Counted from the first letter of the stretch, positions 2,491-23,088 are shown. The stretch: 32,000 bases of DNA from Nostoc sp. PCC 7120 = FACHB-418 (GCF_000009705.1 NC_003272.1:6090001-6122000), one strand, 5' to 3'. Numbers and translations are program-made. Notes: a model not told the origin generated them from the sequence alone.

Positions 2491-4950
2491 TTAGCCTTTA
2501 TGAAAAGCAGTACAAGTTAATGATGACTGTAAATTCACGGAAGATTTATCGGCAATTAATTCTATTTTGCCTTGGGTGTTACGATGCCAAGAAGTTGCTT
2601 GGATAGGAATTTGTGGTTGTATAGGTGTTTGTGCTTGTATTTGTGGTGTGTTTTGGAATGCAGATATATCACGAGTATCAGACCAAGTGCGATCGCTCCT
2701 CACTTCCTGTGTAGGATTTTGCGGCACACCACCCCTACCAGTGGCGACAAAACTACTACTATTAGTATTAGAACAACCAGTAGCTATTTGCTGTGATGGA
2801 TCAGTCACATTCTCCGGTAATTCTACTAAACCGGAATTAGGATCAACACCGACATTATTAATTTGAACTGTACCACTTACCCCAAATTGAGAACTGGCAG
2901 TAATATCACTTTCGGAAGTTTCGCCATCACGAAATTCTAAGCCCAATAAACCTTGAGTGGTAATTTGAATTTTGCCTCCATTTCCTGCAACGGCATTGGC
3001 AATAATATCACTGTTTTCTAGTCCGACAATTAAGGGAGAAATAACAGTAATGTTGCCCCCATTACCATTATTTCCAGCTCTAGCACTGATGAGACTGTTG
3101 TGGCGCATCAGGAGAATATCTCCTACAATCAGTCCTAGAGAACCGCCTTGCCCGGATGCAGCAGCAGTTCTAATTTGACCTTGTTGCTCTAACAAGAGCG
3201 AGTCGGTTTGAATTTGTAAATATCCACCATTGCCACTACCTATATTTTCCGCCGCGATATAGCCCTCATTACTAACTTTAATAGTGGGAGAGATAATAGT
3301 TAAATTTCCGCCATTGCCACTAGGAAATGCTGACAAACCTCTATTTTGTAAATACCTGGGTCGAAATCTTTGCCCTGATGCAGTAATACGACTATGATCC
3401 CGCAACACGGAATTAGAACCATCAACTTCCACAGATTCACTAGCATAAATAGTTAAATCACCCGCATTACCAGTATCAGAAGTGCTAGCAGAAATTACGC
3501 CAGATGCTCTCAGTATTAATTGTCTGGTATTAATAGTTATTACACCGCCATCTCCCCCGAAAAAGGTCGATGTAGCAATAGCGGATGCTCCACCTGATCC
3601 TGGATTTTCACCAAATAGAGAAATTATATCTGCGGTCATGTGAATATTACCGCCACTACCTCCTCCTTCAACCAGTGATGTAATCGTTCCCCCTTCTTTC
3701 ACAATTAAATCTCTAGTGGCGATCGAAATATTTCCACCCTTTCCTCCTCCTGGGAAAGATGGGCTATTAATGCCACTAGCACGAAAATTAATAGGAGAAA
3801 AACCTATAATTTGGATTGATTCTGCGGCAGTGACAGTAATATCGCCGCCTTTCCCCCCATTTGTATAGGTTGTGGATAAAATTCCGCCCCCATCCTGCAC
3901 AATCAACTGCCTAGCTGAAACATCTATATTCGCCCCATATCCACTACCCAGATTTTCAGACAAAATGAAACTTGGATTTTTTTGCGGCAATGCACCACTC
4001 ATTGCTAATAAATCTGCGTTAATTTTGATGCTACCTGGGCGTTGCTGTCCTTGATGTTGAATAAATACACTAGAACTATTTTGAATGTGAATATCTTTTC
4101 CTTGAAGATGAATCGAACCTCCAGGATTACCACTTGTATCGATGAGAGCAGCGCGAGTGAGATAGATATCTGATAAAATTTGACCAGAATGATAGTCAAA
4201 TTTCCAAATAGGAGTATTAGTATTGAGATGAACTGTTCCTGCTGTCATGCTTCCCAGTTCAATATGTCCGCTTTCAGCAATTAACACCCCTGCATCCAAT
4301 TGAATACCATTACCCAAGAGGGCTAATGTTTTCCCTGGAAACAGGCGCAAACCACCAAGTTGTGGATCACGAGTCACTGGGGCTAAAAAATTGGTGGGGT
4401 GGAGAAGATTGTGTCCTTGTCCTTGGACTTGAATGCTACCTGAATTTTGTCCCATCTGTAAGCCAATGGGTACGCTCATCGTGAGCAAAGAAGGTGTGGT
4501 TGTATCAGTTGTACTAAAGATAAAGCCATCGCTAAAGTTAATACTATCGGCTGTCGTTCCTAGAAAAGACCCACCAATATTTAACCTGGCATTAGAGCCA
4601 AAAATAATTCCATTGGGATTGAGTAAAAATAAATTGGCACTACCATTAGCTTGAATTAAACCATCAATATGAGAAATACTACTGCCCGTCACACGACTAA
4701 AAATATTTTGGATATCTAAAGCATTGTCGAAGAAAGCAGAGCCATTGGTGGAAATTGAGAATTGCTGTAAACTGTGAAACAGATTATTCCCAACACGGTT
4801 GCCATTAGTGATAGTGAAATGATTAGCACTTTGAGAAACATCGGTGTTGAGAGTTCCATCGGGAATAACTTGAGCGTTAACACAACTGCTGCCAATAACG
4901 CTTATGAACATTCCGCCGATTACACCAAAGACCGTAAAAGTTACTTTCAT
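2491..4950 (-). CDS. TpsA / filamentous-haemagglutinin-like exoprotein, paralogue 2
   Basis: The track ORF is 2491-4953, but its first codon (4951-4953) is TTG. The adjacent ATG at 4948-4950 gives MKVTF..., which parallels MKITF/MKLTF in sister copies. Signal peptide ends ...SSCVNA|QV. TPS motifs: NLFHSLQQFS, LFLLNPNGIIFG, GGSFLGTTADSINFSDG. The core has GGNI-type Gly/Asn-rich repeats. C-terminal module: ENSDIIANAV, GCS..SSFVATGRGGVPQNP, RSDRTWSD, SWHRNTQGKIEL, LTCTA. Confidence 0.92.
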   Translation of the reverse strand: MKVTFTVFGVIGGMFISVIGSSCVNAQVIPDGTLNTDVSQSANHFTITNGNRVGNNLFHSLQQFSISTNGSAFFDNALDIQNIFSRVTGSSISHIDGLIQANGSANLFLLNPNGIIFGSNARLNIGGSFLGTTADSINFSDGFIFSTTDTTTPSLLTMSVPIGLQMGQNSGSIQVQGQGHNLLHPTNFLAPVTRDPQLGGLRLFPGKTLALLGNGIQLDAGVLIAESGHIELGSMTAGTVHLNTNTPIWKFDYHSGQILSDIYLTRAALIDTSGNPGGSIHLQGKDIHIQNSSSVFIQHQGQQRPGSIKINADLLAMSGALPQKNPSFILSENLGSGYGANIDVSARQLIVQDGGGILSTTYTNGGKGGDITVTAAESIQIIGFSPINFRASGINSPSFPGGGKGGNISIATRDLIVKEGGTITSLVEGGGSGGNIHMTADIISLFGENPGSGGASAIATSTFFGGDGGVITINTRQLILRASGVISASTSDTGNAGDLTIYASESVEVDGSNSVLRDHSRITASGQRFRPRYLQNRGLSAFPSGNGGNLTIISPTIKVSNEGYIAAENIGSGNGGYLQIQTDSLLLEQQGQIRTAAASGQGGSLGLIVGDILLMRHNSLISARAGNNGNGGNITVISPLIVGLENSDIIANAVAGNGGKIQITTQGLLGLEFRDGETSESDITASSQFGVSGTVQINNVGVDPNSGLVELPENVTDPSQQIATGCSNTNSSSFVATGRGGVPQNPTQEVRSDRTWSDTRDISAFQNTPQIQAQTPIQPQIPIQATSWHRNTQGKIELIADKSSVNLQSSLTCTAFHKG
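2541..2700. repeat. 160-bp tract perfectly identical to 7554-7713 (direct repeat, inside the C-terminal module of TpsA paralogue 2)
   Basis: Base-by-base comparison of the two stretches, from aagatttatcggcaatt... to ...ccaagtgcgatcgctcct, shows no mismatch. The offset is a constant 5013 nt. Confidence 0.95.
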
Positions 4951-5024
4951 CAAGCTATTTCCATTTTCTACCCTGTAAGTAGTATTCCCAAAAGATGATT
5001 TTGCTAACCTTGTCGGATGTGTAA

Positions 5025-7412
5025 CTAACTTTTGGAAATTGCTGCACAGGTTAAAGATAGTTGTGCCTGAGTAGAAGATTGCTCTGCAACTAATTCAATT
5101 TTGCCTTGGGTATTACGATGCCAGGAAGTAGCTTGGATGAGAATTTGTGGCTGTGTGGGTGTTTGTGATTGTATTTGTGGTCTGTTCTGGAATGCAGATA
5201 TATCACGAATGTCAGACCAAGTGCGATCGCTCCTCATTTCTTGTGTGGGATTTTGTGGTATTCCACCCCTGCCTGTGGCGACAAAACTACTACCAGTAGT
5301 ATTAGAACAACCACTAGCAATTTGTTGTGATTGATCGGTGATATTGGCCGGCAATTGGATTAAACCGGATTTGGGATCAACACCAATATTATTTACTTCA
5401 ACTGTACCGTTCACACCAAATTGAGAACTAGCAGTAATATCATTTTCGGAAGTGAGTTGAGGACTATATTGTAAGCCGATAATTCCCTGAGTTGTGATTT
5501 GAATATTGCCCCCTTTTCCGTGGACAGCATTGGCAATGATATCACTGTTTTCTAAACCTACAATGATAGGCGAATTAATAGTGATATTACCACCATCACC
5601 AATTGCATTTGATGTAGCGTTAATGGCACTATTATGACGCATCAATAGGGTTTGGGTATTAACATCAATGTTGCCCCCTTCTCCCATTTGTGTGACAGCA
5701 GTAATAGCACCTTGAGTATTCAACACTAGAGAATTGACATTTATTTTTACCATTCCAGCATTACCTCGACCATCATTTCTAACATTAATTAATCCACTAT
5801 TAGCAACCTTCAATTGCTGAGTGGTAATTTGTACATCTCCACTATTTCCAGTCAAAACTCTTGATGTACCGGCTTGTTGAACTGTTGATGAACCTATAAA
5901 ACTGGGAATTAAGAATGATTGTCTGGGCTTGCCAGCAACTTCTATTGATTCTGTGGCATGGAGAGTGACATTTCCGGCTTTCCCACTGGCGTAGGAAGAA
6001 GCTTCCACTCTCGCCCCACTTTGAACTGATAATCTAGCTGTATTCACAATCAAATTGCCAGAATTACCAGCAGCAAGAGTTGAAGAACTTAGGGAACTGG
6101 GTGCAAAACTTGTGGAGACGGTTTCAACTCCGGCTAATTCAATAGATTCTGTGGCCTTGACTGTCACATTTCCTGCCGCACCTGTTCCAATTGTAGAGGT
6201 CGTGACTACAGAACCATCAAGAATTTCTAAGCGATTCGCAACTACGCTCACATCTCCACCCTTTCCAGAAAGAAAAGTCAGTCCAGAAATACCACTACGA
6301 TTAGTTGATATCTTTCCTACTCCTGCTACTTGAATATTGCCAGAGGCATTAACAGTAATATTGCCTCCGCCTACGGAATTACTAATGTTACTGGTCAGAA
6401 TAATACCACCATTATTGGCCATCAGGTCTCGTGTGGATATTTCAATATTGCCTACCATCCCAGTACCGATCGCTCCTGCTCGTACTGCACTAGTAGTAGT
6501 ACCACTGGGATTATCACCAGTGACCGTTAGTAGTTTTGTAGCATGGACTGAAATTTTGCCCGGAGTTTGGACATTTGTCATGTTTTGAATCGATACACGA
6601 GAACCCCCACTCAAAGAGACATTAGCCCCCCATAAATGAATTTCACCATTGCCACCTGTTGACAGTAAAGTTTGGTTAGATAGGTCAATATTCCCAAAAC
6701 TTTGAACATCTTGATAACCTAAACTCCAACCTAAATTATTGGGAGTAAGGCTAACAGTCCCCTCCCCAACTGCACCGAATTCAATTCGTCCTTGAGAAGT
6801 GGAAAGATTACGACTGTCTACAAATATATCTCCTCCTATAAGTGCTAAAGTTTTTCCTGTGGGTACTTGAAGTTGAGTTCCAGATGCTTGAACTTGAATG
6901 GCACTAGGATTCTGCCCAAACTGCAAACCGAGAGGTATATTGATGGTTAACAAAGGAGATATTGTAGGATTGGTGGCACTAAACTCAACTCCATCAAGAA
7001 ACTGAATGCTGTTAGCTGTTGTACCGACAAACGATCCACCAATATTTAACCTGGCATTAGCTCCGAAAATAATCCCATTTGGGTTGATTAAAAATACATT
7101 GGCACTTCCCTTGGCATTGATAGAACCATTAATGGTAGAAACATGACCACCAGTCACTCGACTAAAAATATTTTGGACATCTGAAGCGTTGTCAAACAAG
7201 GCAGAGCCATTGTTAGGAATAGAAAATTGGCTAAAGCTATGAAATAAATTATTACCAACACGAGTACCGTTGGTGATGCTGTAATGATTACTACCGCTCA
7301 CAGAAGTATTGAGGGTGTTGTCGGGTGTTACTTGTGCGTGAACACTAATGTTGCCAATAACTAAGATGTAGATTGCACTAAGTAAGCTTAGGTTAGCAAA
7401 AGTTATTTTCAT
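5025..7412 (-). CDS. TpsA / filamentous-haemagglutinin-like exoprotein, paralogue 3
   Basis: 795-aa ORF with ATG at 7410-7412. Signal peptide ends ...SVHA|QV. TPS motifs: NLFHSFSQFSIP, VFLINPNGIIFGANARLNIGGSF. The core is Gly/Asn/Ser/Thr-rich. C-terminal module: ENSDIIANAVHGKGGNIQITTQGIIGL, GCSNTTGSSFVATGRGGIPQNP, RSDRTWSD, SWHRNTQGKIEL, LTCAA. Confidence 0.93.
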   Translation of the reverse strand: MKITFANLSLLSAIYILVIGNISVHAQVTPDNTLNTSVSGSNHYSITNGTRVGNNLFHSFSQFSIPNNGSALFDNASDVQNIFSRVTGGHVSTINGSINAKGSANVFLINPNGIIFGANARLNIGGSFVGTTANSIQFLDGVEFSATNPTISPLLTINIPLGLQFGQNPSAIQVQASGTQLQVPTGKTLALIGGDIFVDSRNLSTSQGRIEFGAVGEGTVSLTPNNLGWSLGYQDVQSFGNIDLSNQTLLSTGGNGEIHLWGANVSLSGGSRVSIQNMTNVQTPGKISVHATKLLTVTGDNPSGTTTSAVRAGAIGTGMVGNIEISTRDLMANNGGIILTSNISNSVGGGNITVNASGNIQVAGVGKISTNRSGISGLTFLSGKGGDVSVVANRLEILDGSVVTTSTIGTGAAGNVTVKATESIELAGVETVSTSFAPSSLSSSTLAAGNSGNLIVNTARLSVQSGARVEASSYASGKAGNVTLHATESIEVAGKPRQSFLIPSFIGSSTVQQAGTSRVLTGNSGDVQITTQQLKVANSGLINVRNDGRGNAGMVKINVNSLVLNTQGAITAVTQMGEGGNIDVNTQTLLMRHNSAINATSNAIGDGGNITINSPIIVGLENSDIIANAVHGKGGNIQITTQGIIGLQYSPQLTSENDITASSQFGVNGTVEVNNIGVDPKSGLIQLPANITDQSQQIASGCSNTTGSSFVATGRGGIPQNPTQEMRSDRTWSDIRDISAFQNRPQIQSQTPTQPQILIQATSWHRNTQGKIELVAEQSSTQAQLSLTCAAISKS

Positions 7413-7503: not shown

Positions 7504-10389
7504 TCAGCTTTTATTAACAGCAGCACAAGTTAATGATGGTTGTAAATTCACAGAAGATTTATCGGCAATTAATTCTATTTTGCCTTGGGTGTTACGATGC
7601 CAAGAAGTTGCTTGGATAGGAATTTGTGGTTGTATAGGTGTTTGTGCTTGTATTTGTGGTGTGTTTTGGAATGCAGATATATCACGAGTATCAGACCAAG
7701 TGCGATCGCTCCTTACTTCCTGCATAGGATTTTGCGGTATCCCACCCCGTCCGGTAGCTATAAAACTACTACCCTGATTGCTATCACAAGCATTAGCAAT
7801 TTGTTGTGATGGATCGCTAACATTTGTGGGTAGTTCTACTACACCCGAATTGGGGTCAATCCCCACATTATTAATTTGCACTGTGCCGTTGACACTAAAT
7901 TGGGAACTAGCTGTAATGTCGTTGGTGATGTCTTCTCTGGGGGTGAGGGTGTTGCGGAATTCTAAACCAATGATGCCTTGAGTGGTGATATTAATGTTGC
8001 CGCCGCGACCTTGGAAAGCATTGGCGACGATATCGCTATTTTCTAATCCCAGCACAAACAAAGCATGATTGATGTTGATATTGCCACCATTACCATTGCC
8101 CTCTGCTTCGGTGCTGATTTGGCTCATATCCCGCAGGTATAGCAATCCTGATGAGTTGAGATCGATATTGATATTGCCACCATCGCCCACACTTGATACC
8201 GCACTCAAACTACTATTTTGAGCTAGGTTAATACTTTGTGCGGCTGTGATTTGCAGATTTCCGGCTTGTGCTTGGTCTTGCCCACTGACCGAAATTAATC
8301 CACCATCCCGGACAAATAACCGATTAGTCGTCAACGATATATTACCAGCAATGCCTGCTCCGGGTGTCAAGGGATTGCTTGCCGCAGAGGATATTTGGCT
8401 AGTTGGCATCGTTTCGCTATGTACTGCTCGACCACCAACTTCAATGGTATGGGCATTAATACTGATATCACCACCAATGCGATCGCCTGTCACAGAAGAT
8501 TTAATTGCGCCACTGTTGAGAACTCGCAGTGTATCCGTTGTAATATTAATGCGGGAAATATCCCCCGGATCACCATTGGGTAAGGGTTCTCCCCGGCTAC
8601 TGGCATCAATCCCACTGATTCTCCATCCTCCCCTGTCATCGAGTGCTGCCCCTATCACCTCTACAGATTCTGTAGCTTTAATGTTGATGCTACCACTAGA
8701 GCTTTTTGTCTCACTACTGACTAGCAACGAACCACCATCCAGCAATCTTAGTCGCTGTGTTTCAATTTGGATATCTCCTGCCTGAAAGCCTGGAGCAGCA
8801 GCAAATATTGCCGTGGACGAGGAGATACGAGATTGCCGAGACAGTCCGTTAGTCCCCACAATTTCTAGGTCTGGGGTGCGTATGGTAATATTACTGGCGT
8901 TGCCATTACCAAAACTATCTGCCCGAATAGTTCCACTGTCAGAAAGCCGGACGGAGCGACTGGCATTGATCTCAATATTGCCCCCCCATCCAGATGTCTC
9001 CCGTTCGAGTGTGGATGAAATCCAACTATTGATCTGTGAGGAGCTAGAGCCACTGATTTCCACATCCCCTGCATTCACAACCACGTCTCCTGCCTGGGCT
9101 TTTCCACCTACTGGAGTGCTGGTTACATCTGTAATGACACGGGCGTTATTCAAAAGGCGGACACGATCAGCTGTAATTCTGATATCCCCTACACGACCAA
9201 CACCTCCTTGACCCTGGGTTGTGATCCTGGCAGATCCATTACCAGTTCTTGAGGTAGCATTGCCAAGTAGCAAAAAATCCTGAGATGTGATGGTAATATT
9301 GCTACCCTTGTCTAGTCCTAATGTACCAAAGGTTTCATTTCCTCTTAAGTTGGTTGCGATGTTGGAATTGCCTGTGATTTGCATAACAGGAGCAGCCAGT
9401 GTGATGTTTCCACCCCGCCCTTGAGCATCTGCGGTCAATCGCACTCGTATTTCACTATTTATAATGTTTAAGGCATCAGAGGCACGCACCACAACCCCTT
9501 CCCCATCGGCTGTTTTGCCTGTGCTGTTGGCCATTAATTGAGAATTCCCCGTTATATTGACTTGTTGCCCATGAATCTGAATATTGCCTCCCCTAGAGCC
9601 ATTCACATCTACAGTAAATCCATTTCGTAGTTGCACTGTTTGGAAGGTGGGAATGCCGCTAAAATCAAAGTTAAATCGGGCGTTACTGAAGCTAAAGGGA
9701 ACAAAATTCTCAGATGCAACACTGCCAAGTATCACCTGCCCATCTCTTGCTAGAAGTCTTGCATTGCCCGTACCATTGAGGTCAATGTCGCCTCCCAATA
9801 ATACCAAACTTTGCCCCGTATCCACTTGTAATGGTCTGGCTTGTACCGTAATGGAACTGGCACTAGACCCCATCTGTAAACCAATGGGTACACTCATCGT
9901 TAATAATGGTGGACTAATGGGATTGATGGCACTAAACTCTGTGCCATCGGTAAACTTGATACTATTTGCCGTCGTCCCCACAAACGAACCACCAATATCC
10001 AACTTGGCATTTTGCCCAAACATAATCCCGTTGGGATTCATTAAAAACAAACTCACTTGATGATTACCACCAAGAGTTTGAATCAAGCCATCAATCTGAG
10101 AAATATTCCCACCTGTTACCCGACTAAATATAGTTGTAATATTTGGTGTATTAGTAACATCAAAAGTGGCTGAACCACCAGTTGGCACAGAAAAATTACT
10201 AAAACTATGGAATAAATTATTACCTTTTTCAATACCATCAAGAATATGGAAATTATTGCCACTGGGGTTAACAATGGTGTTAGTCGTACCATCAGATGTC
10301 ACCTGAGCATGAGCAGTATGACACCAAATCAGCATGAAACCTAATGACAATTGATTGAGTAAAACTAAACCAACAGAACTTACTTTCAT
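7504..10389 (-). CDS. TpsA / filamentous-haemagglutinin-like exoprotein, paralogue 4 (longest copy)
   Basis: The track ORF is 7504-10392, but its first codon (10390-10392) is GTG. The adjacent ATG at 10387-10389 gives MKVSS.... Signal peptide ends ...TAHA|QV. TPS motifs: NLFHSFSNFSVP, FDVTNTPNITTIFSRVTGGN, SLFLMNPNGIMFG. The repeat core is long and divergent. The C-terminal module has ACDSNQGSSFIATGRGGIPQNP, RSDRTWSD, SWHRNTQGKIEL, LTCAA. Confidence 0.92.
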   Translation of the reverse strand: MKVSSVGLVLLNQLSLGFMLIWCHTAHAQVTSDGTTNTIVNPSGNNFHILDGIEKGNNLFHSFSNFSVPTGGSATFDVTNTPNITTIFSRVTGGNISQIDGLIQTLGGNHQVSLFLMNPNGIMFGQNAKLDIGGSFVGTTANSIKFTDGTEFSAINPISPPLLTMSVPIGLQMGSSASSITVQARPLQVDTGQSLVLLGGDIDLNGTGNARLLARDGQVILGSVASENFVPFSFSNARFNFDFSGIPTFQTVQLRNGFTVDVNGSRGGNIQIHGQQVNITGNSQLMANSTGKTADGEGVVVRASDALNIINSEIRVRLTADAQGRGGNITLAAPVMQITGNSNIATNLRGNETFGTLGLDKGSNITITSQDFLLLGNATSRTGNGSARITTQGQGGVGRVGDIRITADRVRLLNNARVITDVTSTPVGGKAQAGDVVVNAGDVEISGSSSSQINSWISSTLERETSGWGGNIEINASRSVRLSDSGTIRADSFGNGNASNITIRTPDLEIVGTNGLSRQSRISSSTAIFAAAPGFQAGDIQIETQRLRLLDGGSLLVSSETKSSSGSINIKATESVEVIGAALDDRGGWRISGIDASSRGEPLPNGDPGDISRINITTDTLRVLNSGAIKSSVTGDRIGGDISINAHTIEVGGRAVHSETMPTSQISSAASNPLTPGAGIAGNISLTTNRLFVRDGGLISVSGQDQAQAGNLQITAAQSINLAQNSSLSAVSSVGDGGNINIDLNSSGLLYLRDMSQISTEAEGNGNGGNININHALFVLGLENSDIVANAFQGRGGNINITTQGIIGLEFRNTLTPREDITNDITASSQFSVNGTVQINNVGIDPNSGVVELPTNVSDPSQQIANACDSNQGSSFIATGRGGIPQNPMQEVRSDRTWSDTRDISAFQNTPQIQAQTPIQPQIPIQATSWHRNTQGKIELIADKSSVNLQPSLTCAAVNKS
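7554..7713. repeat. 160-bp tract perfectly identical to 2541-2700 (inside the C-terminal module of TpsA paralogue 4)
   Basis: See the partner copy at 2541-2700. The flanks remain similar but carry scattered mismatches (e.g. 2539 g versus 7552 a; 2701 c versus 7714 t). Confidence 0.95.
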
Positions 10390-10477
10390 CACTTATGTCT
10401 GTGATACTTAATGATTTATGCTTATGATTCCCTTCAGATAGATACTTCTAACCCTCACTTGTGGAGATTCAGGACAG

Positions 10478-12976
10478 TTAATTTTGGGAAACGGCAGCAC
10501 AAGTTAAGTATGATGGCGATGGCACATGAGCAGGTGATTGAGCGACTCTTAACTCAATTTTGCCATTAGCGTTACGTCGCCAACCTGTGGCTTGGACGAG
10601 TGTTTCTGGGGATTTCTGTATTTGTGCTTGTATTTGTGGTCTGTTCTGGAATGCAGAGATATCACGAGTATCAGACCAAGTGCGATCGCTCCTCACGTCC
10701 TGTGTGGGATTTTGCGGTATTCCCCCTCTTCCAGTGGCGACAAAACTACTACCAAAGGTGTTAGAACAACCTGTCGCAATTTGCTGCGATGGGTCGGTTA
10801 TATTTTCTGGTAATTCAACTAAACCAGAATTGGGATCAACACCAATGTTATTAATTTTTACCGTGCCATTAATATTAAATTCGGAACTGGCTGTGATGTC
10901 GTTGGTCTGGTCAACTCTTGGGGTAAGAGTATTGTGGAATGCTAGACCAATAATACCTTGAGTGCTGATATCAATATTGCCGCCTCTTCCTTTCACTGCA
11001 TTAGCAATAATGTCACTGTTTTCTAGCCCAGCGATCACAGGAGCATTAATGCTAATATTGCCGCCATTACCAGTACCCCCGGATGTCGCACTAATCAAGC
11101 TATTGTGACGTAGTAACAACAGATCACTGACTTGTGAGGTAATATTACCTCCCTCACCCGATAACGTTTGAGCTTGAATGCTACCTTGACGATCTAAAAA
11201 TATCCTATTGGCAGTAATGTTTATATGACCCCCATCGCCTGTCCCTTCATTAGTCACACTAACTGCGCCGCCATTGGTTAACGTCAAGGTAGGGGTGGTT
11301 ACATTCACAGTTCCGGCATTCGCCGACAGAATATTTGGCAAATTGAATAATTGTTTGATTAATGCCGTAGAGGAAAGGACTGCTGAGTTAATACTGCTAT
11401 TGTTAGTTTGACTGCGTCCGTCAATCAAAATTGATTCCTTCGCGTTAATGTTTAAATTTCCAGCTTCACCAATCAAGAAGGATGTGGTAGCAACTGCTCC
11501 CCCATTGAGCAGTTGTAATCGATCCGTATCTAACGTTAAGGTTTGGGCTTCGCCTGTGCCATAAGTGATTGCACTAATGTTGCTATAGAGTCCTGCCGGA
11601 TTGTCTCCTGTGACAGTCGTATTTTTACTGCGAATAGTTACTTGTCCCGTGGAACCACTCGCCAATGCCAGTGAAGAGATGGCTGCTCCCTGAGAAACCA
11701 GTAGACTATTACTGTTAATGGAGAGATTGCCTGCTGATTTAGCTGTTCGGGAAGAGGTAGTCAGGGAGGTTACTCCTGTAGGATTGATGGGAGAGAAACC
11801 AGATAACTCCACTCTCTCGGCATCAATCTGAATATCGCCACTGGCAGACGATCCAAAAGCATTGGTGTTGACTCCTGCACCTTGTGAGATGGTTAAGTGG
11901 GGAGTGATGATATAAATGGATGAACCTGTGCCAGTATTTAACCCTTCAGAGCGGATACCACTACGAATTTGGGCGTTGGCAGTTGTACCAAAAATCTCAA
12001 TCCCTTCTGAAGCCTGTAAAAAAGTTTCACCCCCAGCAACATTTCCCAGATTTTTGGAAAATATAATTGATCCATCACTGATTTGAATGTGCCGTCCCTG
12101 TAATTGTGCTGAACCAGCATTCAATGCCCCTGCACTTAATAATGCTCCTACAGTCAGCAAGGATTTTTGGGTAAGTTGGATATCTGCAAAGCTTTGTCCG
12201 CTCTGATAACTTAACTGATAACCCTGAGCGATGGGGTTTAAACTAACCATTCCCACTCCGCTTAAACTTCCCAATTCCAAACGTCCTTCGGGTGCATTCA
12301 AGGTTGCACCAATGAGATTCAAGTTACCCCCTACCAGTGCCAAGGTTTTTCCTGGCTTTACCCTCAGTTCTGAGGCACTGGGATTTTGAGTGATGGGGGC
12401 GACGGTACTGGGCGCGGTTAGGGCATGACCTGTGCCTTCAACTATTATGGGGTTGGGATTACTGCCCATTTGCAAGCCAATTGGAACACTCATTGTCAGC
12501 AATGGTATTGAACTGGGATTATTTGCACTAAACTCTGTCCCGTCAGCGAACTTAAGACTATTTGCCGTTGTTCCTACAAACGACCCGCCAATATTCAAGG
12601 AGGCATTGGAACCAAACACAATCCCTGCCGGATTCATTAAAAACAAACTTACCGGATTATTACTCTTAATAGTCTCAATTAGTCCATCAATATGAGAAAT
12701 ATTACCACCCGTAACTCGGCTAAATATATTTGTAATATTTGGTGTATTTGTTAAGTCAAAAGTTGCTGAAGTGTCTTTTGGTAGAGAGAAATTACTAAAG
12801 CTGTGAAATAAATTATTGCCTCTGGCAGTACCGTTAATAATCTGAAAATTATTACTGCTTGGGTTGACAGTAGTGTTTGTAGTACCATCAGAAGTCACCT
12901 GAGCCGTTGCTGGTAAAGACCTTCCCGCAGCTAAGAACACACAGGCTAAACCCAAGCATACAGAAGTTACTTTCAT
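10478..12976 (-). CDS. TpsA / filamentous-haemagglutinin-like exoprotein, paralogue 5
   Basis: The track ORF is 10478-12979, but its first codon is GTG. The adjacent ATG at 12974-12976 gives MKVTS.... Signal peptide ends ...PATA|QV. TPS motifs: NLFHSFSNFSLP, FDLTNTPNITNIFSRVTGGN, SLFLMNPAGIVFG. C-terminal module: GCSNTFGSSFVATGRGGIPQNP, RSDRTWSD, GWRRNANGKIEL, LTCAA. Confidence 0.92.
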   Translation of the reverse strand: MKVTSVCLGLACVFLAAGRSLPATAQVTSDGTTNTTVNPSSNNFQIINGTARGNNLFHSFSNFSLPKDTSATFDLTNTPNITNIFSRVTGGNISHIDGLIETIKSNNPVSLFLMNPAGIVFGSNASLNIGGSFVGTTANSLKFADGTEFSANNPSSIPLLTMSVPIGLQMGSNPNPIIVEGTGHALTAPSTVAPITQNPSASELRVKPGKTLALVGGNLNLIGATLNAPEGRLELGSLSGVGMVSLNPIAQGYQLSYQSGQSFADIQLTQKSLLTVGALLSAGALNAGSAQLQGRHIQISDGSIIFSKNLGNVAGGETFLQASEGIEIFGTTANAQIRSGIRSEGLNTGTGSSIYIITPHLTISQGAGVNTNAFGSSASGDIQIDAERVELSGFSPINPTGVTSLTTSSRTAKSAGNLSINSNSLLVSQGAAISSLALASGSTGQVTIRSKNTTVTGDNPAGLYSNISAITYGTGEAQTLTLDTDRLQLLNGGAVATTSFLIGEAGNLNINAKESILIDGRSQTNNSSINSAVLSSTALIKQLFNLPNILSANAGTVNVTTPTLTLTNGGAVSVTNEGTGDGGHINITANRIFLDRQGSIQAQTLSGEGGNITSQVSDLLLLRHNSLISATSGGTGNGGNISINAPVIAGLENSDIIANAVKGRGGNIDISTQGIIGLAFHNTLTPRVDQTNDITASSEFNINGTVKINNIGVDPNSGLVELPENITDPSQQIATGCSNTFGSSFVATGRGGIPQNPTQDVRSDRTWSDTRDISAFQNRPQIQAQIQKSPETLVQATGWRRNANGKIELRVAQSPAHVPSPSYLTCAAVSQN

Positions 12977-12992
12977 CACCCCTTCTCCATTT

Positions 12993-13070: not shown

Positions 13071-15521
13071 TTAACTTTGAGCCGCCGCCGCACAGGTTAA
13101 TGGTGGTTGCACCTGAGTAAGAGATTTATATGCAAGTATCTCGATTTTGCCATGAGCATTACGTCGCCAACCAGTGGCTTGGACAAGAACCAGAGATTCG
13201 GGGATTTGTGCTGTCACTGCGCCAGTATTCCGGTATGCAGAGATGTCGCGCACATCAGACCAAGTGCGATCGCTCCTTACCTCCTGATTGGGATTTTGCG
13301 GTGTTCCACCTCTACCTGTAGTGACAAAACTACTATCACTGTTCTCTGCACATCCACTAGCAATCTTTTGCGATGAATCGGTGAAATTTGTTGGTAATGC
13401 AACTAAACCCGAATTCGGGTCTACACCGATGGTATTGACTTGTACTGTACCATTTACTCCAAACTCTGAACTGGCTGTAATATCATTTCCTGGTGTCAGT
13501 TGAGAACCGTATTCTAAACCAATAATTCCTTGAGTGGTGATGTTAATATTGCCACCTTGACCTCGAACAGCATTAGCTGTGATATCACTGTTTTCTAAGC
13601 CGACAATGGTGGGTGAACTAATGTTGATATTGCCGCCATTACCCGTACTGCCTGCTGTGGTTGTCATTTTACTGCGATCGCGCATTAACAGCAAACTTCC
13701 CACTTTTAAGTCTATATCTCCACCATTCCCAGATTCAGTCTGTGCTTGAATCAAAGCCTGATTTTTTAATTGGATAATATCTGCGGTAATATTCAGGTTG
13801 CCGGCATTACCAGTACCTTCACTCGTTACAGTCACAGTAGCACCATCCATCAGGCTCAGATTTGGTGTTGTAATGCTAAGACTACCAGCATCTGCCGTCA
13901 GCATATCTGGAAAGTCAGATGATTGACGCAACTGTGCATTAAGACGCATTGCAGAAGAATTAATTGCACTGTTGTTATTATTATTACGACCACTAATTGC
14001 GATCGCTTCACTTGCATTGATACTGACATTTCCCCCGTTACCAGCAAACAGTGTAGATGAACCAATTCTTCCCCCATCTAAAATTTGTAATTTGCCAGTA
14101 TTCAATATCAAATCTTTGTTATCTCCGAACGCGAATGTAGCTAAAGTAATCGCACTGTCAAATCCGGAAGGGCTGTTTCCGACCACTGTGGTGTTTTGAT
14201 TGCGAATTGAAATTTTACCACTACTTCCACTGCCAAATGTGACTGAAGAAAGGGAAGCTCCACCGGATATTAGTAAATTATCACCATTAACGAATATATC
14301 ACCAGCACTGCCAGAAGCAAAACTCAAAGTGCTAATACCAGTAACTCTGTTGGGGTTTATTTGCGAAAAACCAGATATTTCAACTGTTTTTGCATCAATT
14401 TCAATATTACCACCAGGAGCAATTCCCGAAGTTAGATTATTTAAACCAGATCCTTCTTGGAGGGTAAATTTTCGCGTAAAAATACCAATATTTCCCCCTG
14501 CTCCAATTCCATAAGTTTCGCTACGAACTCCACTCAACACTTCTCCATCGCTACTTGTGCCAATTAAATCAATTCCTGTTGATGCTTGAAGGTTAATTTC
14601 TCCACCAGGAAGATAGCCATAATTTTGTGCAAGTATCAATGAACCATCTGTTAAACGGATATTTCCGGCTTGTAAACGAACAGAACCTGAATTTACACCA
14701 CTTACATTTATCAGTGACTTTTCTGCTAATTGAATATAACCGAAAATTTGTCCATTCTCATAACCCAACATATAACCTTGTGCATTTGGGATTAAATCAA
14801 CTTGCCCAGTTCCATTGGTACTAACCAATTCTACCCGTCCTTCTGGGGCAGTCAATATAAACCCATCTATTTGTAAATTACCGCCTACCAATGCTAAGGT
14901 TTTTCCTGGTTTCACTTGTAGTTCTGTCGAGTTGGGTGTTGGAACGATAAAAAAACCGCTATTTGTATATCCTCTTCCTTGAGCCTTGATAGCAGCAGAA
15001 TTACTACCCATTTGCAACCCCACTGGTGCGTTCATTGTCAGCAGAGGTTTATCAGCACCTTGCACAGTACTAAATTCCGTCCCATCGGCAAACTTGATAC
15101 TATTGGCAGTTGTGGCTATAAATGAACCACCAATATTTAAGCTGGCATTTTGCCCAAAAATAATTCCTGCGGGGTTGAGTAAGAATAAGTTGGCACTACC
15201 CTTGGCACTAATATCACCATCAATGTTAGAAATATTACCACTAGTCACCCGACTAAAAATATTTTGGATATCAGTGGCATTGTCAAATGAAGCAGAACCA
15301 CCACTAGGCAAGGAAAATTGGCTGAAACTATGAAATAAATTATTCCCAATACGAGTGCCATTGTTAATAATGTAACTATTGCTTCCATTTATGGAAGTAG
15401 TGGACGTAACAGAAGTATTGAGGGTATTATCGGGACTTACTTGTGCGTGAACACTATTGTTGTAAACAACAGATAACCAGATTACACTCAGCACACCAAA
15501 CCCGACAAAAGTTAATTTCAT
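13071..15521 (-). CDS. TpsA / filamentous-haemagglutinin-like exoprotein, paralogue 6
   Basis: 816-aa ORF with ATG at 15519-15521. Signal peptide ends ...SVHA|QV. TPS motifs: NLFHSFSQFSLP, DIQNIFSRVTSG, LFLLNPAGIIFG. The core resembles that of paralogue 5. C-terminal module: GCAENSDSSFVTTGRGGTPQNP, RSDRTWSD, GWRRNAHGKIEI, LTCAA. Confidence 0.93.
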   Translation of the reverse strand: MKLTFVGFGVLSVIWLSVVYNNSVHAQVSPDNTLNTSVTSTTSINGSNSYIINNGTRIGNNLFHSFSQFSLPSGGSASFDNATDIQNIFSRVTSGNISNIDGDISAKGSANLFLLNPAGIIFGQNASLNIGGSFIATTANSIKFADGTEFSTVQGADKPLLTMNAPVGLQMGSNSAAIKAQGRGYTNSGFFIVPTPNSTELQVKPGKTLALVGGNLQIDGFILTAPEGRVELVSTNGTGQVDLIPNAQGYMLGYENGQIFGYIQLAEKSLINVSGVNSGSVRLQAGNIRLTDGSLILAQNYGYLPGGEINLQASTGIDLIGTSSDGEVLSGVRSETYGIGAGGNIGIFTRKFTLQEGSGLNNLTSGIAPGGNIEIDAKTVEISGFSQINPNRVTGISTLSFASGSAGDIFVNGDNLLISGGASLSSVTFGSGSSGKISIRNQNTTVVGNSPSGFDSAITLATFAFGDNKDLILNTGKLQILDGGRIGSSTLFAGNGGNVSINASEAIAISGRNNNNNSAINSSAMRLNAQLRQSSDFPDMLTADAGSLSITTPNLSLMDGATVTVTSEGTGNAGNLNITADIIQLKNQALIQAQTESGNGGDIDLKVGSLLLMRDRSKMTTTAGSTGNGGNINISSPTIVGLENSDITANAVRGQGGNINITTQGIIGLEYGSQLTPGNDITASSEFGVNGTVQVNTIGVDPNSGLVALPTNFTDSSQKIASGCAENSDSSFVTTGRGGTPQNPNQEVRSDRTWSDVRDISAYRNTGAVTAQIPESLVLVQATGWRRNAHGKIEILAYKSLTQVQPPLTCAAAAQS

Positions 15522-15587: not shown

Positions 15588-18341
15588 TTAATTTTCGACT
15601 ATAGCAGTACAGGTCAACTGTGATAAGTGCAATGTGGAAGAGAGTGTAGAGACTAGCTCAACTTTACCTTGAGCATTACGATGCCAAGAAGTAGCTTGGA
15701 CGGGAATTTGTGGCTGTGCGGGTATTTGTGCTTGTATTGAAGGGGTGTTCTGGAATGCAGAGATGTCGCGGATATCAGACCAAGTGCGATCGCTCCTCAT
15801 ATCTTGCGTGGGATTTTGTGGTATTCCGCCCCTGCCTGTGGCGACAAAACTACTACCAGTATTTGCTGAACAACCTGTAGCAATTTGTTGTGACGAGTCA
15901 GTAACATTCCCAGGTAGTTCAATTAAGCCAGAATTAGGGTCAACACCAAAGTTATTAATTTGTACAGTGCCGCTAACTCCAAATTGAGAACTGGCTGTAA
16001 TATCACTTTCGGAGGTAGCTTGGGGACGGAATTTTAGTCCAAATAAACCCTGAGTTTGAATATCGATGTTACCACCAGCCCCTTCAATCGCATTGGCAGT
16101 AATATCACTGTTTTCTAAACCAATAATAATCGGTGCATGAATACTGATATTGCCACCTGTGGCTGTACCTGTAGCATTAGTATTAATTTTACTGCCAGAA
16201 CGCATCAGTAGAACATCAGCAGCTAGACTAATATTACCGCGATCGCCTACAGAAACTTCTGAAAGCAGACTGCCTCCTTGCTCCAGCTTAATCCGGTTGG
16301 CATTCACGATCAAGTTACCTGAATTGCCACCACCTGTATTACTGACAGAAATTTGCCCATGATTAAGAACATTGAGCCGATTCGCCACTAGATTAACTGA
16401 ACCAGCATCAGAGGTTGTAGTAGAAGCTGCCGTAATGGTGCTTGGGAGAATGCGACCATCAGTTAAGGGTTTGGACATACCCTCTACAGTAATATTGTTG
16501 ACTTGCAAATTAACATTACCCGCCGCACCATTACCATCTGCGGAGGAGGTAATTTGTCCACCGTTGAACACACGCAGGTTATCGGCTGTCAGGTTAAGGT
16601 TGCCACCTGAACCCGTAGAACCATTGCCCAGAGAGGCTTTGATACCTGTGATAGTTTGGCTATATCCATCAATCATCGGTTCGCTGACCTGTATATCTTT
16701 AGCTCGAATCTCAATATCTCCTGCTGTACCGTTTGCTCCTGGTATAAAAAGACCCAAGAAATTTACTTGAGAACCTACTACCTCACTAGTAATGCCCCCA
16801 CCATTTGATAATATGAGATTCCCTGTATCGATAGAAATGCGTCCTCCTTGTCCTGTTGTCCCAGATTCCAGTGAAGCAAGAACCGCACTAAATATACCAA
16901 CAGGGTTAGCGCCTTGAATCTCTAAACTCTCGGTAGCTCGAATGGTGACTTCTCCTCCTCTACCATTCCCTCCCAACACACTGCTACTAATACGACCACC
17001 ATTGAATAGGTGAATCCTTTGAGCATCAACAGTAACTTGTCCACTCTGATTATTGCTTCCCGATAGAAGTAAATTACCAATTGAAGTTGCAGAAGCTCCA
17101 AATAAAGTTTCATATCCCAATAGATCCACATCTGTAGCGTGTATGGTGATGTCTCCAGTCCTAGAGTTATTACCAGAAGTGCTGGACACAAGCCAAGCTC
17201 CATTCGTCATCTTTAAACGTCCAGTTTCGATGGTTATATTTCCTGCTTGTCCTGTTGCTGGTGGCCCTGGAAGTACAAATAATCCTAATGAATTGCCTAC
17301 GGAAGTGCTGATCCCAGCGAAAAGAGGTTGGTTAACAAAATCAATGGTTCCTAAAAGATCGATAAATTCTGTAGTGTGGATAGTAATACCTTTTCCTTGT
17401 CCAGCAAATGTTTTTGCACCTATGTTCGAGCCATCCTTTAAGGTTAATCCCCGTCCCCAAATATTGATTGCGCCACCGTTGCTACCATCCGCAGTAACAA
17501 AAGAAGTTTGTTGAAGTGTAATTGTACCCCCGTTGACAGTATTTGGCGAAGAAGTGAGTTGCCATCCGGTTTCCTTGTCTAGGGCAATTTCTCCACTTTG
17601 CAGCGCCCATAATTCGATATGTCCATCAGGAGCAGAAATACTGGCACTATCAATATCAATCTGACTACCCACAAGAGCTAAAGTCTGATTGGGAATCACT
17701 GATAATGTTGGTAATCTAACAAAGAACAAACCGAAACCTAACTCTGGAAGCCCTTGCACTTGAATTGGTGAGCCTTGGACTTGAATTGCTCCGGCATTAC
17801 TTCCCATCTGTAACCCCACGGGTACACTCATAGTCAATAATGGCAGTGCAGCAGAGTTAGTTGCACTAAATTCTGTCCCATCGGAAAACTTAATACTACT
17901 CGCTGTTGTTCCGACGAACGAACCACCGATATTTAGGCTGGCATTTGGCCCGAATACAATCCCGTTAGGATTCATCAAAAATAAACTGACTGGGTTATTG
18001 CTACTGAGCGTCCGAATCAACCCATCTATCTGAGAAACATTACCGCCTGTGACTCGGCTAAATATCGTTGTAATATTTGGCGTATTTGTTAAATCAAAGG
18101 TTGCCTTGCCACCTGTCGGCACAGAGAAATTACTGAAGCTGTGAAATAAATTATTTCCCTTATCAATACCATTGAGAATAGAAAAATCATCACCAATGGC
18201 GTTGACAGTAGTGTTAGTTGTGTTATCAGATGTGACTTGAGCTAGGGTTGGTAGTGAGAGAGTGGAAGTGAACAAGCCAGTGGTCAATGCTGTTAACAAC
18301 AATTGAAACCAGAGATTTGATTCTTTGTAGTTAATTCTCAT
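15588..18341 (-). CDS. TpsA / filamentous-haemagglutinin-like exoprotein, paralogue 7
   Basis: The track ORF is 15588-18347, but it begins with TTG-GTG. The first ATG (18339-18341) gives MRINYKESNLWFQLLL.... Signal peptide ends ...PTLA|QV. TPS motifs: NLFHSFSNFSVP, FDLTNTPNITTIFSRVTGGN, SLFLMNPNGIVFG. The core resembles that of paralogue 8. C-terminal module: GCSANTGSSFVATGRGGIPQNP, RSDRTWSD, SWHRNAQGKVEL, LTCTA. Confidence 0.92.
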   Translation of the reverse strand: MRINYKESNLWFQLLLTALTTGLFTSTLSLPTLAQVTSDNTTNTTVNAIGDDFSILNGIDKGNNLFHSFSNFSVPTGGKATFDLTNTPNITTIFSRVTGGNVSQIDGLIRTLSSNNPVSLFLMNPNGIVFGPNASLNIGGSFVGTTASSIKFSDGTEFSATNSAALPLLTMSVPVGLQMGSNAGAIQVQGSPIQVQGLPELGFGLFFVRLPTLSVIPNQTLALVGSQIDIDSASISAPDGHIELWALQSGEIALDKETGWQLTSSPNTVNGGTITLQQTSFVTADGSNGGAINIWGRGLTLKDGSNIGAKTFAGQGKGITIHTTEFIDLLGTIDFVNQPLFAGISTSVGNSLGLFVLPGPPATGQAGNITIETGRLKMTNGAWLVSSTSGNNSRTGDITIHATDVDLLGYETLFGASATSIGNLLLSGSNNQSGQVTVDAQRIHLFNGGRISSSVLGGNGRGGEVTIRATESLEIQGANPVGIFSAVLASLESGTTGQGGRISIDTGNLILSNGGGITSEVVGSQVNFLGLFIPGANGTAGDIEIRAKDIQVSEPMIDGYSQTITGIKASLGNGSTGSGGNLNLTADNLRVFNGGQITSSADGNGAAGNVNLQVNNITVEGMSKPLTDGRILPSTITAASTTTSDAGSVNLVANRLNVLNHGQISVSNTGGGNSGNLIVNANRIKLEQGGSLLSEVSVGDRGNISLAADVLLMRSGSKINTNATGTATGGNISIHAPIIIGLENSDITANAIEGAGGNIDIQTQGLFGLKFRPQATSESDITASSQFGVSGTVQINNFGVDPNSGLIELPGNVTDSSQQIATGCSANTGSSFVATGRGGIPQNPTQDMRSDRTWSDIRDISAFQNTPSIQAQIPAQPQIPVQATSWHRNAQGKVELVSTLSSTLHLSQLTCTAIVEN

Positions 18342-18403
18342 CACCAATACCTTAGATTGACCTCGTTAAAGTTAAAGTTCCCTTGAAGGTATGAAAAATA
18401 ACA

Positions 18404-21321: not shown

Positions 21322-23088
21322 TTAAAACGGAGAATATTGTAATGAGAAGTACAAACCATTTTCTTGGAGCGATCGCTTTTCACCATCTACGGATGTTAGA
21401 GGAATACCCCAATCTAGCCTAACTGAGAAACTATCCCCTTGTTTCCATAGCAGCCCCAACCCAGTACCCACAAAGGTACTTGGTGACGGGTTACTACCTT
21501 GGGTATTCCAGCCTGTGCCTATGTCGATAAATGGTGTTAGTTGTAGCACGCCTCCCAAGTTATCAGCACGGACAATCGGTAACCTCAATTCTCCAGACAA
21601 CAATAAACCATTATCTGTAAGTAATGTATCTTGGCGATAACCCCGGACACTTTGCTGACCACCAAGACCAAATTGTTCCAAGGGTACTAGGGAAGTTGAG
21701 GCTAGTTGAATATCGCCTCTGGCTAAAAATAGGGTGTCTGGTGCTAACTGTCTTACCCATTGCGCCTGTCCCCGCCAGGCGAAAAAGCGACTATCTGGTT
21801 CATCCTGATTCACATTAGCATCGAACCAATTTACTCCCAAGCTAAATTGCGATCGCGCTGCAAAAACTTGCTCATTGCTGCGTTGGGTATACTCCTGGGT
21901 AAAGCGGAAGGCAGAAATCTTAGTTCTTCCTTCTGCATCTGCACCAGGTGATAAAGGAAACCCACCAATATTATCCAGCCCTAACTCAGTCTGGCTTTCT
22001 TGGCGCGAGAAGGATAGCCCCACCGCTAATTCTTGGGTTGGCTTTTGAATGAGTGGCTGTCGATAGCCAAATTCATAAGAGGTCGTGTTGGATTGAATAT
22101 CTAGGACGCTGAATGGGTCTTCAATTACACGGTTCCACCCCTGGTTAAAACCGAAGGATACGGTACCATTGCGGGCATTAATGGGCAGTTGGTAATTTAA
22201 ATTAATGGCATTACTGCCATCTGTGTTGTTGTACCCTACGCTGAGAGTGTCGCCTAAACCTAGTAAATTTGCCTCTTGCAGATTTACCCCCCGGCGAAAA
22301 CTACCCACACTAGGCGATCGCCCATTATCTAAAGTTGCTGTCAGTGAGAAGGTATCGGCTTCTTGTACCTCAACTTGCAAGATGTTAGTTCCAGGTTCTA
22401 CACCCATTTGCAACTCGGCTGACAAATTTTGAATACGCGGATCGAGGCGCAGTAGTTGTAGCTTTTCTATTAAGCGCGGTACGTTGAGTGGCTTACCAGC
22501 ACCCAATTGAATGCGATCGCGAATGTATTGACTACGCAGTCGCCGATTACCAACTATTTTAATGTCCTGCAAACTGCCTTCTACTATCTGAATAGTAATT
22601 ACTCCAGCTTCTACTGTCTGCGGTGTAATTACAGCCCCTGTCGTTACATAGCCGTTATCAGTGTAGAGTTTGGTGATAGCGTCTCTAACTTGCAACAGTT
22701 CTGCAAATGATACTTCTCGTCCCACGAAGGGATCTGTAATAGGGGTAAATTTTTCTGGTGGGAAAACTTGACTACCAACAACTTCAATACGATCAACTCG
22801 AAATTTGGCATTAGTATCATTTTCTACTGGATTTTGCTGCTCTAGTAGATCCGTAGGAGCAGGTAATTGCTCTTGATCTGATGGTTTTTGCAATACTTCC
22901 GACGGTAAAGTCCTCGTAGGAATATCTTCTAAACGATCCTTTGGCAAGGAGCCAGGGTCAGGTGTTTGGGCGATCGCTGGATGATAGTCGCATAATACTG
23001 CTGCTACCACAAAAGCATATTTGAGAAGTTTGAGTTTAGTAATGGAATTTTCTGTATATGAAACTAATAATTCTGAATTTACATTCAT
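21322..23088 (-). CDS. TpsB outer-membrane transporter (ShlB/FhaC/HecB family, Omp85 superfamily, POTRA-containing)
   Basis: 588-aa ORF. It has a hydrophobic signal-like segment (LLKYAFVVAAVL...AIAQ) and a Pro/Gln-rich linker. POTRA-like segments: FRVDRIEVVGSQVF...LYTDNGY and ITIQIVEGSLQDIKIVGNRRL. The loop-6 signature is GGQQSVRGY. The C-terminal half has alternating beta-strand character and ends in the aromatic terminus ...YFSLQYSPF. It lies directly upstream of, and co-oriented with, the TpsA genes. Confidence 0.88.
   Translation of the reverse strand: MNVNSELLVSYTENSITKLKLLKYAFVVAAVLCDYHPAIAQTPDPGSLPKDRLEDIPTRTLPSEVLQKPSDQEQLPAPTDLLEQQNPVENDTNAKFRVDRIEVVGSQVFPPEKFTPITDPFVGREVSFAELLQVRDAITKLYTDNGYVTTGAVITPQTVEAGVITIQIVEGSLQDIKIVGNRRLRSQYIRDRIQLGAGKPLNVPRLIEKLQLLRLDPRIQNLSAELQMGVEPGTNILQVEVQEADTFSLTATLDNGRSPSVGSFRRGVNLQEANLLGLGDTLSVGYNNTDGSNAINLNYQLPINARNGTVSFGFNQGWNRVIEDPFSVLDIQSNTTSYEFGYRQPLIQKPTQELAVGLSFSRQESQTELGLDNIGGFPLSPGADAEGRTKISAFRFTQEYTQRSNEQVFAARSQFSLGVNWFDANVNQDEPDSRFFAWRGQAQWVRQLAPDTLFLARGDIQLASTSLVPLEQFGLGGQQSVRGYRQDTLLTDNGLLLSGELRLPIVRADNLGGVLQLTPFIDIGTGWNTQGSNPSPSTFVGTGLGLLWKQGDSFSVRLDWGIPLTSVDGEKRSLQENGLYFSLQYSPF

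Follow-up and report, generated by a model that had tools for sequence, protein, structure and literature searches.

Why do exported proteins that differ from one another along most of their length all end alike, and what does the shared end do? The question is raised by a 32,000-nt stretch of Nostoc sp. PCC 7120 = FACHB-418 (GCF_000009705.1, NC_003272.1:6090001-6122000; hereafter the window, with positions counted from its first letter), in which one gene for a TpsB transporter is followed by seven complete paralogous TpsA genes and an eighth that is cut at the window edge, all on the minus strand. With their TPS domain and cognate TpsB, the array proteins are TpsA exoproteins of two-partner secretion (TPS; type Vb of the type V secretion systems, T5SS), and a C-terminal module of about 200 residues with two invariant cysteines closes every one of them. 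The explanation that we favour, if tentatively, is a disulfide-closed periplasmic stopper that tethers the passenger in TpsB and also carries a docking or cleavage site for a protein with TPR and CHAT domains (TPR-CHAT).

The C-terminal module and its array

Alignment of the last 230 aa of the paralogues reproduced the nine motif elements listed by a first-pass annotation of this DNA, in the same order and at the same coordinates. The two cysteines that it had placed about 88 aa apart were found as well. Counted outside the first 31 residues (signal peptide), all seven complete copies hold two cysteines only, spaced by 86-89 aa (Cys727/814 in the copy encoded at 2491-4953; 702/789, 869/956, 738/827, 724/810, 826/913 and 819/906 in the others), and the last of them sits 5-7 aa before the C-terminus.

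The copy at 2491-4953 (minus strand, as are all features of the module given here; 820 aa ORF, 819 aa as called) served as the reference. Its module (2491-3114) opens at LLMRHNS (nt 3114) with the presumed last rungs of the beta-helix, LLMR...ENSDIIANAV.G.GGKIQITTQG...DITASSQFGVSGTVQINNVG (2848-3114; residues 1-90 of the last 210 aa), which are predicted as strands. A 24-aa proline-rich connector, VDPNSGLVELPENVTDPSQQIATG (2776-2847), in which conservation reaches 94% or more at P23, L30 and D36, leads from the end of the beta-helix to the first cysteine. The codon of this residue (Cys1, Cys727; 2773-2775), conserved in 100% of 129 representative modules, starts the stretch Cys1-x7-F-x2-TG[RK]GG-x-P-x2-P...W-x-D-x-R. 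This stretch comprises the motif F-x2-T-G-[R/K]-G-G-x-P-x2-P (FVATGRGGVPQNP, 2713-2751), with F53, G57 and G60 at 100%, G59 and P65 at 99% and position 58 occupied by R (96%) or K (4%), and the block RSDRTWSDTRDISAF (2656-2700) with its W-x-D-x-R core (W75 99%, D77 and R79 98%). A variable Gln/Pro/Thr-rich linker follows (2599-2655), where no residue exceeds 30% in the representatives, then a predicted beta-hairpin, ATSWHRNTQGKIELIA (2551-2598), and finally the codon of the second cysteine (Cys2, Cys814; 2512-2514), which is 99% conserved and lies 6 residues before the C-terminus.

The annotation had been unable to assign the module to a known family, and the searches gave the same answer. In Pfam and NCBIfam, full-length proteins (E<=0.1) matched by their TPS domain alone, with nothing on the module, and 26 module sequences searched at E<=5 yielded no consistent family. 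Single-sequence and 70-sequence profile queries with the module against all PDB chain sequences returned nothing relevant; for the full-length protein the TPS domain of EtpA was the sole PDB match. A Foldseek search of the PDB with a model of the last 210 aa found nothing below E 0.6.

That model, made with AlphaFold2 (AF2) from 70 sequences, had a mean predicted local distance difference test score (pLDDT) of 64.6, the rungs scoring 70-85, the segment from the connector to TGRGG-P below 50 and the hairpin (ATSW...IELIA) about 80. A second AF2 model, of the last 175 aa (114 sequences; a deeper alignment with fewer rungs), had a mean of 53.1, kept the hairpin at 78-91 and hinted at short strands at QIATGC and SSFVA. 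In the last 90 aa before the connector, AF2 drew regular short strands with a weak Foldseek match to the HMW1 secretion domain (2odl). The connector and TG[RK]GG are the most conserved parts and yet score below 50, a pattern that fits a segment structured only with a partner. Mean-field direct-coupling analysis (DCA; 452 module sequences, effective number Meff 291) was noisy, partly gap-driven and gives a weak hint only. It paired N110 with E116 in the hairpin, and its weak pairs S51-I115, V61-I115, W107-T133 and T78-L130 tie the hairpin to the tail and to the segment SSFVATGRGGV, couplings that a small beta domain enclosed by the two cysteines could account for.

All large open reading frames (ORFs) across 1-23088 of the window lie on the minus strand. 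The TpsB gene (21322-23088) encodes a POTRA_2 domain and a ShlB/Omp85 barrel (Pfam PF08479, E 3e-24; PF03865, E 8e-33). Ahead of POTRA1, residues ~40-95 of TpsB form an N-terminal extension of about 55 aa rich in Pro, Gln and Glu. The TpsA genes follow at 18404-21145 (913 aa; module 18404-19030), 15588-18347 (919 aa ORF, 917 aa in the public record; module 15588-16210), 13071-15521 (816 aa; module 13071-13700), 10478-12979 (833 aa ORF; module 10478-11100), 7504-10392 (962 aa ORF; module 7504-8130), 5025-7412 (795 aa; module 5025-5650) and 2491-4953, the reference copy, before the cut gene at 1-2399, which breaks off inside the module at ...GCSNNTGSSFVATGK and encodes 885 aa on the source contig. 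Each TpsA has a TPS domain behind a signal peptide whose hydrophobic leader ends A-x-A|Q. In the four paralogues scanned, the domain matched PF05860 with E 1e-63 to 1e-74 and TIGR01901 with E 1e-22 to 1e-26; PF05860 in the remaining ones is taken from the precomputed table of the public record. Plus-strand ORFs of 150-179 aa antisense to TpsA genes (1012-1464, 8246-8785, 9584-10060 and 17053-17514) are in all likelihood shadow ORFs that arise from a repetitive coding sequence rich in Gly, Asn and Ser.

The array extends past window position 1. The source contig (GCA_014696735.1, JACJQQ010000014.1) adds a minimum of three TpsA genes downstream of the 885-aa gene (L078:12552-22460), with products of 815, 825 and 828 aa, the 828-aa one running off the locus. 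Two of these extra TpsA proteins could be read to the stop and have the module with both cysteines; in the third, the sequence breaks off within the module. One TpsB gene hence heads at least 11 tandem TpsA genes.

Conservation and distribution of the module

Among the paralogues, mean pairwise amino acid identity drops from 0.65-0.72 in the TPS domain to 0.2-0.35 in the middle and rises again to 0.65-0.79 in the module. This profile of conserved ends and variable middle fits several paralogues using one TpsB, and the likeness of the modules lies well outside what chance would produce. The central passengers (e.g. 3200-4400, 5700-6900 and 8200-9800), in proteins of 795-962 aa, contain many indels, and their divergence, at a ratio of non-synonymous to synonymous differences (pN/pS) of about 0.7, suggests relaxed or diversifying selection on a presumably displayed shaft.

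Such a layout is the opposite of that of CdiA, as had been pointed out in the first-pass annotation. Like CdiA and other polymorphic-toxin TpsA proteins, the array proteins combine an N-terminal TPS domain and a presumably beta-helical shaft with an adjacent TpsB. In CdiA, however, a hypervariable C-terminal toxin follows a pretoxin motif and is accompanied by an immunity gene, whereas in the array the C-terminus is the most conserved part. A toxin of contact-dependent growth inhibition (CDI) was rejected on these grounds, together with the lack of a VENN-type motif and of room for immunity genes, since consecutive TpsA genes are separated by just 56-91 bp. An Asp-Pro self-processing module of the FrpC type was also rejected; the Asp of VDP is 77% conserved (N 12%), and there was no PDB sequence match.

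Within the module the constraint is uneven. The core from the connector to RDISAF has a pN/pS of 0.25, the linker one of 0.64 and the middle of the proteins one of 0.71. The synonymous differences themselves (pS) are near saturation at about 0.7 in the TPS domain (0.72) and the middle and amount to 0.48 in the distal module. A tract of 161 nt covering linker, hairpin and tail (2540-2700, minus strand) is identical to 7553-7713 of a non-adjacent paralogue and is the product of a recent gene conversion; other pairs of paralogues share identical runs of 25-50 nt only, centred on the blocks coding for TGRGG..P and RSDRTWSD. Because of the lower pS in the distal module and the 161-nt tract, gene conversion is seen as one contributor. 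It does not account for everything, in view of the low pN/pS of the core and of the persistence of the same residues far beyond this genome; the module is conserved by purifying selection with some gene conversion, and its conservation is functional.

A profile of the distal 138 aa of the module (DITASS to the end) matched 7,985 clusters (50% identity) at E<=1e-3, 5,212 at E<=1e-10 and 400 at E<=1e-30. In all 150 matches listed, the module ended at most a few residues short of the C-terminus; the proteins were either fragments or about 790-1,775 aa long. Invariant or near-invariant in the 129 representatives are D1, I2, A4, S6, G12, C45, F53, G57, R58, G59, G60, P65, W75, D77, R79, G113, L117 and C132. 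Loss of the cysteines and motifs in relatives would have spoken against the module as first described. Instead, 128 of the 129 have exactly two cysteines (78-115 aa apart, median 88), the second about 6 aa from the end (median tail 6 aa), while only 5 cysteines were counted in the 70,107 passenger residues of 97 long members.

All named matches are cyanobacterial. A genome scan gave at least 594 confirmed matches, of which the best 80 are all from cyanobacteria, mostly Nostocales, and the 28 of 72,556 plasmids with a match are likewise cyanobacterial (Nostocales, Oscillatoriales, Pseudanabaenales and Acaryochloris). The whole module with both cysteines is kept in divergent long TpsA proteins of N. 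punctiforme pNPUN03, Planktothrix agardhii and Pseudanabaena PCC 7367. Judged from these sequences, the module forms the conserved C-terminal piece of a type Vb exoprotein family that is very large, has so far been seen in cyanobacteria only and has many members named 'S-layer family protein' by NCBI.

Genes linked to the arrays

The gene context was sampled in 73 related loci, in which 207 full-length TpsA proteins with TPS domain and module were labelled. These are typically 810-930 aa long and form arrays of up to eight per 20-kb locus; a TpsB gene, mostly upstream of the array, was present in 22 loci. Immediately beyond the downstream end of the arrays stand recurring genes of three unrelated families: 30 of the 73 loci encode a TPR-CHAT protein of about 850 aa (PF12770, E 5e-63) and 26 a DUF928 protein (PF06051), and the third family is a CHASE2 hybrid histidine kinase. 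The usual order is TpsB - TpsA(n) - TPR-CHAT - DUF928 - CHASE2 kinase (e.g. L071:13265-17266, L035 and L022). The gap from the last TpsA gene to the CHAT gene is 30-90 bp in eleven loci, and the same set is carried on plasmids of Planktothrix agardhii (L081) and N. punctiforme (L080), in the latter with CHAT beginning 10 nt past the TpsA stop.

The CHAT proteins have a Sec signal peptide and invariant His and Cys residues in the region of the CHAT domain. Their TPR plus CHAT architecture is like that of Csx29 of type III-E CRISPR systems and of cyanobacterial HetF, from which the array-linked proteins differ by the Sec signal peptide and by their place in a secretion operon; the module itself is no protease. 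The DUF928 proteins (e.g. L050:15467-16585 and L032:11407-12681) consist of a signal peptide, 3-7 tandem repeats of about 22 aa (...GKGAPRQATGGASRGNLFTP...) and the DUF928 domain. The repeat core ATGG-x-SRG loosely resembles ATG[RK]GG of TpsA; TPR-CHAT might conceivably recognise both.

A direct tie between module and protease was met on plasmid pREB1 of Acaryochloris marina (L079:5502-10772), where a single protein of 1,756 aa, encoded next to a DUF928 gene, unites TPS domain (24-229), beta-helix, module (module positions 2-88 at 835-923, E 1e-22), TPR and CHAT (1486-1754). At the junction the front half of the module is kept (last rung, connector, Cys1 and F-x2-TGRGG-x-P), and TPR-CHAT replaces linker, hairpin and Cys2. 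By its domain make-up this protein is a Rosetta-stone fusion of the module to TPR-CHAT. A homologue search for further TpsA-CHAT fusions returned five short proteins (247-440 aa), none fused, and is uninformative. In the literature no paper was found on the module or on the CHAT/DUF928/CHASE2/TPS cluster, and the link of the module to these three proteins appears to be undescribed in the searchable literature; a 2007 paper on Beggiatoa mentions paralogous cyanobacterial hemagglutinin-like exoproteins.

In the window itself, an oppositely oriented gene for a zinc alcohol dehydrogenase separates the TPS locus from three minus-strand genes 1-5 kb upstream, which encode a GT2 glycosyltransferase (24366-25355), a VTT/DedA-type membrane protein (25368-26030) and a multi-pass membrane protein of 654 aa without Pfam match (26158-28122). 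Rfam and tRNA scans of the window gave no match.

Tethering, release and the alternatives

The two cysteines very probably form an intramolecular disulfide. An intermolecular disulfide between TpsA and TpsB was ruled out, because mature TpsB has no cysteine: its sole one is residue 33, in the signal-peptide region, and the same pattern recurs in 20 further full-length TpsB proteins from related loci, one of them with an extra Cys501. Passengers of T5SSs are poor in cysteine and tolerate only small disulfide loops, and according to reviews of these systems loops of the size seen here are incompatible with translocation (PMC5422565, PMC8151025). In HMW1 and HxuA a small C-terminal disulfide domain stays in the periplasm and locks TpsA in TpsB (PMC5422565, PMC8151025). 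The array proteins are like HMW1, HMW2 and HxuA of Haemophilus influenzae (Buscher et al. 2006, summarised in PMC5422565 and PMC8151025) in being TpsA proteins with a cysteine pair at the extreme C-terminus of a passenger otherwise free of cysteine. In the family studied here this passenger measures 700 aa or more, and the pair encloses about 88 aa. That the module is likewise retained in the periplasm and tethers its passenger seems to us close to an even chance.

In the mechanism that we favour, the cysteine-free beta-helical passenger would thread out through the shared TpsB until the last ~90 aa, from Cys1 to Cys2, fold in the oxidising periplasm into a disulfide-stapled beta domain too big for the TpsB channel. 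The 24-aa proline-rich connector would remain in the pore, leaving the passenger displayed and tethered to TpsB. Just inside the periplasm, the stretch F-x2-TG[R/K]GG-x-P-x2-P / W-x-D-x-R would serve the caspase-like TPR-CHAT as docking or cleavage site, and cleavage would set the passenger free and make TpsB available to the next paralogue. Since the TPR-CHAT, DUF928 and CHASE2 proteins have periplasm-facing parts, they would share the compartment of such a stopper, and conserved ends with a variable middle would be expected because TPS domain and module both handle shared partners. A functional interplay of module and TPR-CHAT, suggested by linkage and fusion, is possible but less than even in our estimate. 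The stretch is highly conserved and not confidently folded alone, and is therefore the candidate for TPR docking or CHAT cleavage; that it is the exact site is doubtful. The first-pass annotation had offered pore or surface retention, a secretion-control prodomain as in FhaB and a tag for a common partner or processing protein. A combination of the first and the last is what we now prefer as a model yet to be proven, and the second, in its strict form, does not fit.

The HMW1/HxuA anchor is the nearest known functional counterpart of the module, whose membership in that group is not established. PDB and Foldseek searches revealed no homology to the C-terminal region of HMW1 or HxuA, the HxuA C-terminus being disordered in the crystal and the HMW1 C-terminal sequence not compared. 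The array proteins also differ in that their cysteines enclose a conserved motif-rich domain, that one TpsB serves up to at least 11 paralogues and that TPR-CHAT, DUF928 and CHASE2 genes are linked. In HMW1 the cysteine pair lies within the last ~20 residues.

Several points weigh against the stopper. Its periplasmic location is itself a prediction. The loop of 78-115 aa contrasts with the much shorter segment between the cysteines of HMW1, and the module resembles no solved protein in sequence or fold; the low AF2 confidence may be due to a shallow alignment or to a novel fold. The weak DCA pairs V14-N110 and V14-L130 would put the hairpin on the last rung of the beta-helix. A ratio of at least 11 TpsA genes to one TpsB gene speaks against permanent plugging, for which reason release was included in the model. 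Cleavage after R or K is a mere analogy with metacaspases and orthocaspases. About 40% of the arrays with a visible downstream end lack an adjacent CHAT gene, and the window stops short of the end of its own array.

The tether-and-release model can be widened to a hypothetical five-part envelope system, new to science and present throughout cyanobacteria, of TpsB, TpsA array, periplasmic TPR-CHAT, DUF928 protein and CHASE2 hybrid kinase, with the module as transducer of caspase-like proteolytic signalling coupled to type Vb secretion. Variable TpsA 'antennae' would be kept on the surface by the periplasmic Cys-loop, TPR-CHAT would cut at TG[R/K]GG (in cis where the two are fused, as in Acaryochloris, and otherwise in trans), and the CHASE2 kinase would sense either the condition of the tether or the C-terminal fragment set free. 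DUF928 proteins, with their tandem QATGGASRG repeats, might then supply a competing substrate or decoy, or a pro-peptide. To this wider scheme we assign little likelihood.

Of the alternatives to a periplasmic stopper, the one that survives best, although we think it rather unlikely, is an extracellular cap or tip. After full translocation the module would fold on the last rung and form its disulfide outside the cell, there stabilising the end of the helix, binding a common ligand or stacking paralogues head to tail via their conserved ends. The hairpin is predicted with confidence, and the two V14 pairs just named join, with V14-H108, the last rung to hairpin and tail. Conserved termini with a variable shaft would suit end-to-end assembly too, and the S-layer names given to many members point in the same direction. 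A possible analogy is the autochaperone or junction of autotransporters, likewise a conserved C-terminal piece of a beta-helical passenger beside the pore, but that belongs to subtype Va with emergence from C to N, has no cysteine pair and is unrelated in sequence. A cap would, however, require an 88-aa loop to stay reduced on its way through the oxidising periplasm, and T5SS passengers normally avoid such cysteine pairs. Moreover, no independent folding is predicted for the most conserved stretch, the DCA signals are near noise level, and linkage and fusion to a TPR-CHAT that bears a signal peptide and no outer-membrane export signal are left unexplained.

Less probable still, the module could be a processing or recognition tag only. 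TpsA would then be fully secreted, with no tether, and TPR-CHAT, DUF928 or the CHASE2 sensor would recognise the module; cleavage at TG[RK]GG, for instance, might produce a C-terminal peptide that signals through the CHASE2 kinase. Such a tag is in keeping with the operon linkage of the three partners, with the Acaryochloris fusion and with the invariant basic residue of the motif (R or K). The 3-7 tandem QATGGASRG-x-LF-x-P repeats of the DUF928 proteins loosely recall the motif as well, but the resemblance is short and could be due to chance. With Sec signal peptides only, though, the outer membrane would separate the partners from a substrate that is fully secreted, and the two invariant cysteines are given no role.

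An intramolecular chaperone or prodomain as in FhaB, periplasmic during secretion, controlling folding or timing and then degraded by housekeeping proteases, is improbable, even though it shares the topological arguments of the stopper model. The prodomain of Bordetella FhaB is also a C-terminal region of a TpsA; it stays inside the cell, in the periplasm, and proteases remove it (cited in PMC5422565). It is unrelated in sequence to the module and not built around a cysteine pair, and no similarity to FhaB was detected. At roughly 1,200 aa, the FhaB prodomain, which has a proline-rich region and a conserved extreme C-terminus, is about ten times longer, and since only ~120 aa follow the last beta-helix rung of the array proteins, a long prodomain in the strict sense was rejected. 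With a dedicated protease gene linked to the arrays, housekeeping proteases also seem unnecessary. Lastly, a mere by-product of gene conversion among tandem copies, with no specific function, would agree with the 161-nt tract and the reduced pS, but is scarcely credible and effectively refuted, given the core pN/pS and the persistence of residues and both cysteines across Nostocales, Oscillatoriales, Pseudanabaenales and Acaryochloridales and throughout the 7,985 clusters.

A domain absent from Pfam and NCBIfam thus ends thousands of cyanobacterial exoproteins, many of them encoded in arrays of up to at least 11 genes. If tethering and release by the periplasmic stopper are true, the anchoring principle of HMW1 and HxuA would extend to a new phylum, in the form of a stopper that is much larger and unrelated, and the frozen ends and diversifying middle of the paralogues would be accounted for. 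The module would also be the first substrate for the abundant periplasmic TPR-CHAT proteases of cyanobacteria and would give a first context to DUF928 proteins and CHASE2 sensors. In Nostoc-type cyanobacteria, symbiotic strains among them, the array proteins are candidates for filament adhesion and for interactions of the sheath or surface, and how they are held and released matters for the biology of the cell surface.

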